A stretch of DNA of 64,000 nt from a virus (taxonomy: Duplodnaviria; Caudoviricetes), in IMG/VR virus record IMGVR_UViG_3300030376_006611, positions 549 through 64,548 of that record. One strand, written 5' to 3'. Of the stretch, positions 58,499-63,294 are shown piece by piece (the stretch's first letter is position 1; each line of letters starts with the position of its first letter). The translations under genes and the position numbers were made by a program. The notes under the pieces are model-generated. The model was not told the DNA's origin. It saw nothing but the letters and a program-made list of their open reading frames with translations, and searched no databases.

Positions 58499-58978
58499 AT
58501 GAAGCTATCAGAAAATCTATCACTCGCCGAATGCCTCAAGAGCAAAACAGCCACGAGACTCGGGATAAATAATGAACCTCATGATGAATGGGTTGTCGAA
58601 AACCTTAAGTCGCTTGCAGAGCATGTATTTCAGCCTTGTCGCGACCATTTCGGGTGTGCTATATACGTGTCGAGCGGCTATCGTTCGCCTGATCTCAACC
58701 GTGCTATCGGTGGGTCAAAGCGCAGTCAGCACATGGAAGGAAGAGCACTCGACCTCGATTGCGATGTATACGGAGTTATCACAAATGCTGAGCTCTTCAA
58801 CTACATTAGAGAGAATTTGGACTTCGATCAGATGGTGTGGGAGTTTGGTGATGAAGACAATCCTGATTGGGTACACGTCTCTTATGTTCATGGCGGGACT
58901 AATCGTAAGAGGTGTCTACGCGCTCGCAGAGATGATAACGGAAAGGTTTACTACGAAGTAATGTACAAATCACTATAA
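58499..58978 (+). CDS. Endolysin, peptidase M15 family
   Basis: SSGYRS..LN.AIGG...SQH..G.A.D and WVHVSY zinc-peptidase motifs. Confidence 0.85.
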   Translation: MKLSENLSLAECLKSKTATRLGINNEPHDEWVVENLKSLAEHVFQPCRDHFGCAIYVSSGYRSPDLNRAIGGSKRSQHMEGRALDLDCDVYGVITNAELFNYIRENLDFDQMVWEFGDEDNPDWVHVSYVHGGTNRKRCLRARRDDNGKVYYEVMYKSL

Positions 58979-61247: not shown

Positions 61248-61407
61248 GAAGAAGCCAGAGGGTCTCGGGGATACTATCGCAGAGATCACTAGGGCCACGA
61301 GAATTAAGAATATTGTTGATCATATCAGCAATAAGACGGGTAAGGACTGTGGATGCGCCAAGAGGCAAAAGGCGCTCAATAAGATGTTCCCATACGGTAA
61401 GAAGTGA
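61231..61407 (+). CDS. 58-aa conserved protein (GLGDTI...CGC..R...LN..FP), not in ORF track
   Basis: Recognisable motif; GTGA overlap downstream. Confidence 0.7.
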   Translation: MSEDTKKKPEGLGDTIAEITRATRIKNIVDHISNKTGKDCGCAKRQKALNKMFPYGKK

Positions 61408-62009
61408 AGACATTTGACTTGTTTATCGTTGAACTGGAAAAAACGGTCAACGATACAATTACTACCGACTCAGGCTTTGAGCTTTATATCGAGACAAAGT
61501 TTGAGAACGGTGAGTTCGATCACAGAGTCACTCAGGGGCCAGTTGTGGCTGTGCCTTTTAAATATGACACTGGGGTCAGCATCGGGGATATTCTATACTT
61601 TCACCACCTTGTCGTCATGCAGGAGGGGCAAGTACTTACTGGTGTCGACAATCACTACTTTGTCAAATACGGCACTCAGGCTATTGGTAATCAAGCTATT
61701 GCGTATAAAAACAAAGATACTGGCGAGATAAAATGTCTTGGTGGTTGGTCACTGCTTGAGCCTATCGAGGAGGAGACCAAAGACTCTAGTGTTATTGAGA
61801 TCGTTGATCTTAAAGAAAAGCTCCCTACAAAGGGCCGTGTTGTTTACACATGCGGAGACGGTACAGCTGATGACGTGGACATCAAGCCAGGGGATGTGGT
61901 TGGGTTCAAAGAGAACCGAGACTATAGAATCAAAATTGATGGCGTGGAGATGTACAGAACCCGCGCTGAAGATCTTCTCTATGTCGAAGAAGAAGTTCAC
62001 GACGATTGA
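61404..62009 (+). CDS. Tandem GroES-like co-chaperonin
   Basis: Two GroES-like halves: G.VVAVP...SIGDILYF and KGRVV...IKPGDVVGF...IDGVEMYR...DLL. Confidence 0.62.
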   Translation: MKTFDLFIVELEKTVNDTITTDSGFELYIETKFENGEFDHRVTQGPVVAVPFKYDTGVSIGDILYFHHLVVMQEGQVLTGVDNHYFVKYGTQAIGNQAIAYKNKDTGEIKCLGGWSLLEPIEEETKDSSVIEIVDLKEKLPTKGRVVYTCGDGTADDVDIKPGDVVGFKENRDYRIKIDGVEMYRTRAEDLLYVEEEVHDD

Positions 62010-62352: not shown

Positions 62353-62709
62353 ATGCCTATCAAAGATCTAGATGCTAGAAAGGCCTACAACAAGGCGTAT
62401 CAAAAAGAGCACTACAGGAACAACAAGGAGTACTACAAGTCAAAAGCCAAAGCCTCAAAACTCAAACAAAGGGTGTGGAATAGGGCTTTTGTTGACAGGG
62501 TCAAGAGGCTTCTTGGATGTGTTGACTGTGGCGAGTCCAACCCTGTAGTCCTAGAGTTTGACCACGTAAGAGGTGAAAAGGCTGGAAACATAGCCGACAT
62601 GGTACACAGACCGCTTTGTGTCGATGCAATCAAAGAAGAGATTCGTAAGTGCGAAGTGCGTTGTGCTAATTGCCACAGAAAAAAGACCTTTGAAAGAAGG
62701 AACGCATAA
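62353..62709 (+). CDS. HNH endonuclease
   Basis: CVDCG...LEFDHV...C...CANCH. Confidence 0.8.
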   Translation: MPIKDLDARKAYNKAYQKEHYRNNKEYYKSKAKASKLKQRVWNRAFVDRVKRLLGCVDCGESNPVVLEFDHVRGEKAGNIADMVHRPLCVDAIKEEIRKCEVRCANCHRKKTFERRNA

Positions 62710-62786
62710 CCGCAAGTATCCCCTCAAGCTTATACCTTGTAGAAAGGGTAACTGGTCACATGTGGGTTCAAGTCCCACCTTGCGGA
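62710..62786 (+). ncRNA. tRNA-like RNA, anticodon UAU (Ile-like), with anticodon arm and D-loop in swapped order
   Basis: Acceptor CCGCAAG/CTTGCGG plus A; CAAG-CTTATAC-CTTG comes first, then AACTGGTC D-loop-like segment, then GTGGG-TTCAAGT-CCCAC. Confidence 0.7.
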
Positions 62787-62802
62787 CAAAGTAAACGTGT
62801 CG

Positions 62803-63075: not shown

Positions 63076-63149
63076 GCACCTGTAGCTCAACTGGATAGAG
63101 CAGCGCACTTCTAATGCGCAGGTTTCAGGTTCGAGTCCTGACAGGTGTA
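63076..63149 (+). tRNA. tRNA-Arg(UCU)
   Basis: Canonical cloverleaf GCACCTG/CAGGTGT, GCTC/GAGC D-arm, GCGCA-CTTCTAA-TGCGC, TCAGG-TTCGAGT-CCTGA; CCA not encoded (ACAA follows). Confidence 0.95.
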
Positions 63150-63162
63150 CAAATTAAATACA

Positions 63163-63294
63163 ATGGCAAAGGTTCAAGTATCCACCTACAAGTCTAAGAG
63201 AGTGAGACGCAAAGGCGTTCACGCAAAGACAAAATCATCAAAGAACAAGTCATCAAAGAACTACACTAAGCGCTATGCTGGTCAAGGTCGATGA
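63163..63294 (+). CDS. 43-aa basic peptide (GVHAKTK...KNY.K.Y.GQGR), not in ORF track
   Basis: A-rich leader; recognisable motif. Confidence 0.7.
   Translation: MAKVQVSTYKSKRVRRKGVHAKTKSSKNKSSKNYTKRYAGQGR

Follow-up and report, generated by a model that had tools for sequence, protein, structure and literature searches.

In the tRNA cloverleaf, the strand at positions 10–13 leads directly into the D-loop, and the strand at positions 22–25 reaches the anticodon stem by way of position 26. Permuted and split tRNA genes, in which the 3′ half lies upstream of the 5′ half, occur in some algae and archaea and are mended at the RNA level. According to a paper from 2024, all known bacterial tRNAs are cloverleaves (PMC11551756). 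The D-arm-less mitochondrial tRNAs, such as mammalian mt-tRNA-Ser(AGY) and nematode mt-tRNA-Ser, lack the D hairpin; nucleotides on the 3′ side of the anticodon stem pair with the connector that follows position 9, which lengthens the anticodon helix, and these short, flexible molecules have lost the D-loop and the contacts of G18 G19 with the T-loop (PMC7609411). A non-cloverleaf tRNA has also been engineered for bacterial translation in E. coli: with the artificial D-arm-less “mini HisT,” which has no D-loop contacts, the synthetase, EF-Tu, and the ribosome tolerated the missing D hairpin, a pnp mutation was needed in vivo, and E. coli aminoacylation, EF-Tu, and ribosomes accepted a fully D-arm-less tRNA in vitro (PMC11551756). 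Natural non-standard architectures are represented by the allo-tRNAs and tRNA-Sec, which were mined from metagenomes and have acceptor/T-stem lengths of 8/4, 9/3, or 8/5; these keep the cloverleaf order, and only their stem lengths are altered (PMC5389517).

The window analyzed here is the whole 64,000-nucleotide stretch of phage DNA, taken from a virus record that is complete at 64,548 bp and whose only tRNA genes are the element described below and a canonical tRNA-Arg(UCU). The element, at positions 62710–62786 on the plus strand, reads as a 77-nt, tRNA-like phage gene with the anticodon UAU (Table 1). Its chain runs in the order acceptor, U8 A9 U10, CCC, anticodon arm, AAA bulge, GGG-U, D-loop-like strand, CAU, T-arm, and acceptor. 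The first-pass annotation had described a perfect 7-bp acceptor stem and a perfect T-arm, an anticodon arm CAAG-CTTATAC-CTTG following U8-A9, a start immediately after the stop codon of an HNH gene, and a 3′ end shared with the neighboring tRNA-Arg. Direct reading of the sequence confirmed all of these points: both helices are perfect, TAT occupies 62731–62733, the TAA of the open reading frame at 62353–62709 abuts the element, and CAA follows both tRNA genes. In both cases this CAA stands in place of CCA (62786–62789 and 63150–63153).

Table 1. Parts of the tRNA-like element and its neighboring genes, with positions in the window.
Feature	Positions	Strand	Remarks
HNH endonuclease gene	62353..62709	+	phrog_2255, E 2.7e-26; stop codon abuts the tRNA
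Acceptor stem, 5′ strand CCGCAAG	62710..62716	+	7/7 pairs with CTTGCGG (62779–62785)
U8 A9 U10 connector	62717..62719	+	U8 and A9 invariant in 93/93 distinct model hits
CCC, 5′ strand of rewired D-stem	62720..62722	+	Pairs with GGG (62746–62748)
C14 and U15, junction layers between D-like helix and anticodon stem	62723..62724	+	
Anticodon arm CAAG / CUUAUAC / CUUG	62725..62739	+	Anticodon UAU at 62731–62733
U-A-G-AAA: U31, bulged N32, G33 (pairs with C14), invariant AAA bulge	62740..62745	+	
GGG-U, 3′ strand of rewired D-stem	62746..62749	+	Covaries with 62720–62722; D-loop-like strand directly 3′
D-loop equivalent AACUGGUCA	62750..62758	+	Candidate A14 A15 C16 U17 G18 G19 U20 C20a A21
CAU linker	62759..62761	+	C50 and A51 invariant; U52 at least 90% conserved
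T-arm GUGGG / UUCAAGU / CCCAC	62762..62778	+	Canonical T54 T55 C56 R57 A58 loop
Acceptor stem, 3′ strand CUUGCGG, and discriminator A73 (62786)	62779..62786	+	CCA not encoded; CAA comes next
Canonical tRNA-Arg(UCU)	63076..63150	+	ARAGORN; Rfam tRNA 69 bits

Like canonical class I tRNA-Ile (anticodons GAU, lysidine-CAU, and, rarely, UAU; RF00005), the element has a 7-bp acceptor stem with A73, a 5-bp T-stem with a TTCRA loop, a 7-nt anticodon loop with U33 and A37 (here together with C32 and C38), U8 and A9, the bases A14, R15, G18, G19, and A21, and a total length of 77 nt. Unlike canonical tRNA-Ile, it has no D hairpin at positions 10–25, just 8 nt separating the acceptor from the anticodon stem; the D-stem strands flank the anticodon arm with the D-loop behind it, an invariant AAA bulge is added, and the 5-nt variable loop is cut to CAU. 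By most criteria that can be read from the sequence, the element is a class I tRNA-Ile, and what it fails is the defining D hairpin of the cloverleaf. It shares the missing D hairpin and the lengthened anticodon helix with the D-arm-less mitochondrial tRNAs, but the phage family to which it belongs keeps a D-loop-like strand and the 77-nt length, and presumably works with ordinary bacterial translation factors. In contrast to “mini HisT,” this family is natural and conserved and retains the elbow elements. Whereas the allo-tRNAs and tRNA-Sec alter the stem lengths, the stems of the element are a standard 7/5 and it is the order of the arms that is altered; and the gene is neither permuted nor split, its two acceptor strands lying at the ends and pairing with each other directly.

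An identical copy of the element and more than 100 close relatives occur in viral contigs, and its occurrence is far beyond chance. After filtering several hundred loci from a pattern scan of IMG/VR, we retained 186 distinct members of 75–79 nt from viral contigs, in which the segment lengths are the same except for 1–3 nt around the GG. The carriers are diverse and include crAss-like, Streptomyces, Microbacterium, and marine phages as well as jumbo-sized contigs, and between unrelated phages the core sequence (UAU, GAAA, UAA..GG..ACAU, and often the entire T-arm) varies unusually little. By blastn, matches of 64 nt at approximately 80% identity occur in cultured phages of two kinds; in the crAss-like Kehishuvirus “tikkala,” the match lies inside a tRNA array in an unannotated gap, and in about 90 Streptomyces BE-cluster phages it is unannotated, with the exception of EGole. 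In EGole (L002:1495–1571), the GenBank label on the element is tRNA-Leu(UUA), and in Streptomyces phage Coruscant (MT711976.1, 73030–73090) the element lies beneath a CDS annotated as an FtsK-like translocase. When the 1-kb neighborhood in the window was compared with phages by blastn, the sole match was to the ordinary tRNA-Arg. The pattern matched 20 times in the genomes of 185,579 bacterial and archaeal species, almost always on a MAG contig, and one of the matched contigs is as long (362,763 bp) as a viral record in IMG/VR. This distribution is essentially that of a viral family, with no sign of a cellular home. A search of public RNA runs gave small shares (0.05–0.19) and contigs of relatives from marine RNA libraries; these contigs lack ends, strand, and CCA, and DNA carry-over is possible. 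Full-text literature searches, which included the sequence motifs, found no description of this layout.

For standard gene finders, the element is marginal. ARAGORN made no call on the element, and an Rfam tRNA search of the whole 64-kb window at the gathering cut-off missed it. When only a small region or a single genome was searched, the Rfam tRNA model (RF00005) gave 31 bits against a cut-off of 29, with an alignment in which 15 D-arm positions were deleted and 18 nt were inserted in the variable region. The first-pass annotation had named a convincing cloverleaf alignment as the observation that would speak against its reading; with ARAGORN and the Rfam tRNA model, no canonical cloverleaf alignment of the element exists. 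It had also proposed a search with a family-specific covariance model. Such a model, R1, was built from the family and separates it from ordinary tRNAs: the element scores 93 bits, members score at least 69 bits, divergent members 38–51 bits, and ordinary tRNAs at most 30 bits. The top 126 hits of R1 in 897 kb of tRNA-rich phage DNA were all Ile or Arg. By comparison, ARAGORN detected 3 of 303 family copies (approximately 1%). Gene finders miss this family, which is large and consists of phage Ile and Arg tRNAs that mostly carry no annotation. Single-sequence folding was also tried and was rejected as a guide to the middle of the molecule: the minimum-free-energy structure keeps the acceptor stem and T-arm and pairs the middle differently, its z-score of −1.9 is not significant, and the relatives give it no support.

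The feature that distinguishes the family is a 3-bp helix between nt 11–13 and nt 37–39, built around the anticodon arm (62720:62748, 62721:62747, and 62722:62746). In an alignment of 145 sequences it is 100% paired, and its three pairs covary, with two-sided changes in 48, 48, and 17 sequences, respectively; the variants are CCC/GGG, CUC/GAG, ACC/GGU, CGG/CCG, CCG/CGG, UCC/GGA, and CCA/UGG. As the family members had been filtered on this helix, it was re-checked in two sets collected without that filter. In a set defined by the 3′ pattern only, 75 of 76 sequences were fully paired, the exception being a truncated remnant; in a set defined by the 5′ pattern and kept for the T-arm and anticodon stem, 142 of 143 were fully paired. 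Chance matches to the 5′ pattern had zero, one, two, and three pairs in 22, 38, 27, and 4 cases, which are random frequencies, and a shift of the partners by one column lowered pairing from 94% to 44–46%. The remaining helices are maintained in the same manner. Among the 145 relatives, all seven acceptor pairs show two-sided changes (97% paired), the four anticodon-stem pairs covary (98% paired), and four of the five T-stem pairs covary (98% paired). The tertiary partners 8:41, 42:52, 10:40, and 14:33 are almost invariant, and covariation is therefore uninformative about these pairs.

These data refine the pairing scheme of the first-pass annotation. It had taken GGGT/ACAT as the D stem, for which no compensatory change was found; the GGG pairs instead with the CCC at 62720–62722. 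Its alternative helix, CCCT/AGGG, correctly extends the anticodon arm, but its register is off by one: the variants ACC/GGT, CTC/GAG, and CGG/CCG fit only 11:39, 12:38, and 13:37, and the CCCT/AGGG register was rejected. A competing hairpin, GUAA-YYGG-UYAC, was likewise rejected, since it is 70% paired, shows zero two-sided changes, and breaks wherever nt 39 varies. The annotation had further described the anticodon arm and D-arm as swapped. The order is indeed not that of a cloverleaf, but the D-stem is retained and encloses the anticodon arm; the D-loop alone has been shifted to the far side of that arm. Because the rewired helix covaries, selection acts on the chain order as it is encoded.

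The strand that follows the rewired helix resembles a D-loop. At 62750–62758, 3′ of the anticodon arm, the DNA reads AACTGGTCA, and the consensus of the family is A14 A15 Y Y G18 G19 N20 Y A21; the stretch after the second helix strand, U-A-A-Y-Y-G-G-N-Y-A, matches the D-loop pattern A14 R15 Y16 Y17 G18 G19 N20 (20a) A21. The D-loop of the canonical tRNA-Arg in the window is AACTGGATA (given also as AACUGGAUA), compared with AACUGGUCA in the element. In the family alignment, insertions and deletions in this strand are confined to positions next to the GG, as they are in D-loops. In the element, GGG-U leads into the D-loop-like strand, and U-CCC leads via C14 into the anticodon stem. Compared with the cloverleaf, GGG-U would take the place of canonical positions 10–13 and CCC that of positions 23–25, so the D-stem appears to be retained while the block consisting of positions 10–13 plus the D-loop seems to have shifted from before the anticodon arm to behind it.

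Helix layers can be counted on this scheme. U10 lies opposite U40 and is U.U in 88 of 93 distinct model hits and A:U in 2, which are divergent members; C14:G33 (G33 is 62742) is C:G in 145 of 145 sequences; and U15 opposite U31 (62740) is mostly U.U and sometimes U:A, U:G, or C:G. Four layers (U10.U40 and the three pairs), one layer (C14:G33), and five layers (U.U and four pairs) would together give 10, equal to the stack formed by the D-stem, the 26:44 pair, and the anticodon stem of a normal tRNA. G18 G19 would still contact the T-loop, and the L-shape would be kept with a different threading. Because U8, A9, candidates for A15 and U48, G18 G19, and the T-loop are all present and the layers number 10, an L-shape with normal elbow contacts is plausible, as judged from helix-layer counts and conserved bases. 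U52 of the CAU linker is a candidate for the position-48 partner of A15 and could form an A15:U48 Levitt pair. G33, A34, A35, and A36 are invariant in the 145-sequence alignment (A1) and near-invariant in the model hits; the AAA bulge may form groove triples that replace the groove contacts of the variable-loop bases.

The anticodons of the 186 members fall into two amino-acid classes: Ile, with UAU in 99 and GAU in 38 members, and Arg, with ACG in 27, UCU in 14, CCU in 5, and UCG in 3. As a negative control, the same frame was scanned for NAV anticodons; of the 70 pattern hits, none had the helices or the T-arm, and in a scan for middle bases other than A, only Arg was found among the matches listed. 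The bacterial Arg identity set consists of A20, C35, and A/G73, with A20 as the main ArgRS determinant, and the Ile determinants include A73, the anticodon, A37, and D20, the E. coli D-loop set being G16, D20, and D21 (PMC9976931). The base after the GG is U in 137 of 137 Ile members and A in 49 of 49 Arg members. Likewise, A73 is present in all 137 Ile-class members, and among the Arg members C35 occurs in all 49, the discriminator is G or A in 45, and CCA is encoded in 29. The Arg members therefore carry the Arg set (A20, C35, A/G73), and the element itself reads UAU, A37, and A73 of the Ile set. As for the Ile D-loop set, the U after G18 G19 would fit D20 in 137/137 members if the positions are equivalent, and position 16 of the element is C, not G.

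The anticodon loop of the UAU members has a further peculiarity at position 38. The first-pass annotation had staked its reading on conservation of the UAU loop and of the AACTGG segment in homologs. The loop CTTATAC is present in 78 of 99 UAU members, and the GG-containing D-loop-like strand is conserved in the family. Position 38 is accordingly C in 78/99 rewired UAU members; it is a pyrimidine in 12 of 25 canonical phage tRNA-Ile(UAU) and A in 38 of 38 rewired GAU members. This bias may be linked with the UAU anticodon, as a feature of decoding or modification, and not with the fold. In E. coli, t6A37 is a reported IleRS determinant. One paper reports a strict 36-UAA-38 requirement for bacterial t6A37 (PMC13276492). 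Because the element has C38 and not A38, its charging by IleRS could be weak, and its decoding might be affected as well. An unmodified U34 could also read AUG.

The genomic settings of the family are those of tRNA genes. Of the 303 copies, 285 are in loci with canonical tRNAs, 153 of these at most 100 nt from one, and only 11 of the 303 share their anticodon with a canonical tRNA that is also present. Common pairings in one array are a rewired GAU gene with a canonical UAU gene, or the reverse. In the 52 long open reading frames of the present phage, AGA is the commonest Arg codon (41%), AGG accounts for 24% of Arg codons, and AUA for 19% of Ile codons. Phage tRNAs usually serve as a codon supplement, and tRNAs for AGA and AUA fit this role, given a presumed mismatch with host codon usage. 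Elsewhere in this part of the window, a GroES-like co-chaperonin of 201 aa (61404–62009, plus strand; phrog_13932, E 4e-40) lies two genes upstream of the tRNA, an endolysin is at 58499–58978, and the terminase large subunit begins at 63275.

Judged by sequence comparison, the element is probably an elongator tRNA-Ile that functions in reading AUA with its UAU anticodon, and its chain order is rewired and not that of a cloverleaf. Host RNase P and 3′ processing would excise the RNA, the CCA-adding enzyme would complete its 3′ end, and host IleRS would charge it through the anticodon, A73, A37, and U20. Decoding of AUA would then be supplied to a phage that uses AUA often, and the neighboring tRNA-Arg(UCU) would do the same for AGA. 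A topologically rearranged functional tRNA-Ile was one of two interpretations offered by the first-pass annotation, and it is favored by the covarying helices, by identity positions that change with the anticodon, and by the tRNA arrays, although the arms are not simply swapped. The annotation had added that such a tRNA bypasses TilS. This holds for any tRNA-Ile with a UAU anticodon, but it does not account for the fold, since GAU (Ile) and four Arg anticodons occur on that fold too.

The other interpretation, a decoy for anticodon nucleases, belongs to a broader alternative in which the RNA is a non-decoding tRNA mimic: a decoy or sponge for a tRNA-targeting nuclease, for a tRNA-binding defence protein or a modification protein, or a regulatory tRNA-like RNA, retaining the acceptor/T-arm and the Ile anticodon loop only for recognition. 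We consider this quite improbable. The fold is not a cloverleaf and the family is limited to two amino-acid classes, both of which suit a mimic, and the constancy of the core across unrelated phages would suit one specific recognition partner; tRNA-targeting immunity is reported to be widespread (PMC12851939). However, the synthetase positions far from the anticodon loop (U20/A20 and A73 or G/A73) track the anticodon class without exception, and many Arg members encode CCA; a decoy would need neither, and the anticodon-nuclease decoy is disfavored for this reason. Moreover, the members fill anticodon slots that are empty among the canonical tRNAs of the same array and do not duplicate them, and the two tRNA genes in the window fit two codons that the phage uses heavily. 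A tRNA-Ile that does decode could be combined with a protective role of the fold. The family could be a topological isomer of tRNA with the same L-shape and contacts, in which the rewiring was selected because it conceals tRNA-Ile and tRNA-Arg from some factor, perhaps a nuclease, that recognizes the normal D-arm, with charging and decoding left intact; the host might deploy such a factor in defence, or it might be the enzyme with which the phage itself degrades host tRNAs. We offer this extension tentatively and regard it as unlikely.

That the element is a functionless, decayed tRNA pseudogene or fragment, formed for example by a D-arm deletion and a variable-region insertion, is highly improbable, even though it is marginal to gene finders (the missing ARAGORN call and the 31-bit Rfam score with the D-arm deleted), false tRNA calls are known to arise from tRNA fragments (PMC9897764), and one truncated remnant (L089) exists. 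Neutral decay would preserve neither the uniform segment lengths of 186 distinct sequences, nor the compensatory changes in four helices, nor the invariant bases at tertiary positions, nor the spread over very different phages, and recent copies of one mobile fragment are excluded by the divergent acceptor and anticodon stems. We give equally little credence to the idea that the RNA is cut and rejoined into an ordinary cloverleaf, in the style of the permuted and split genes of algae and archaea, or that the order is an assembly artefact. The known processing of permuted genes is inapplicable because both acceptor strands are already terminal, and neither a bulge-helix-bulge nor an intron-like signal was seen in the element. 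The same order recurs in the genomes of isolated phages and across hundreds of sequences assembled independently, and the covariation of the rewired helix speaks against both versions.

If the element is a functional tRNA-Ile with a rewired chain, its large and conserved phage family, with the tRNA chain strung in another order, would stand as a natural counter-example to the cloverleaf as the universal bacterial form. It would mean that another threading can also produce the L-shape, and would provide a test case for the core contacts that synthetases, RNase P, EF-Tu, and the ribosome need. Because ARAGORN finds 1% of the copies, phage tRNA inventories are undercounted, which affects analyses of codon usage and host prediction. 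The scaffold may also be orthogonal to enzymes that read the D-arm. A question that arises is why only Ile and Arg tRNAs use the rewired fold. The fold may have arisen once, with the anticodon then switching between two synthetases whose recognition depends mainly on the anticodon and on positions 20 and 73; UCU and UAU differ by a single base change. Alternatively, selection may have acted against a nuclease that reads the D-arm.

Several members depart from the common form or occur in combination. In four divergent members with R1 scores of 38–51 bits (L323:14212–14288, L225:8491–8565, L206:38–118, and L151:1377–1456), the rewired order and the Ile/Arg anticodons are kept, the internal-loop sequences differ, and the strands after the GG are longer; the family is therefore wider than the search patterns captured. 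The truncated remnant (L089:3935–4013, plus strand) has an intact 3′ half from GAAAGGGTAA onward and an unrelated 5′ half. A 68-nt Ile(GAU) tRNA-like gene without a D-arm (L229:3069–3136, plus strand; R1 30 bits) has a CTC-GCAA-GAG hairpin just before the T-arm, a non-canonical layout that is distinct from the rewired family. Tandem pairs of rewired tRNA-Ile(GAU) genes about 10 nt apart are found on jumbo-sized contigs (L137, L138, L141, L151, and L168), rewired GAU and rewired UAU genes lie approximately 1.1–1.4 kb apart in L131, L133, L135, and L157, and L266 carries rewired Arg genes with the anticodons UCU and ACG. Across the family, the base 3′ of the discriminator is almost always C (CAA, CTA, CTT, or CCA), which suggests a shared context for 3′ processing.
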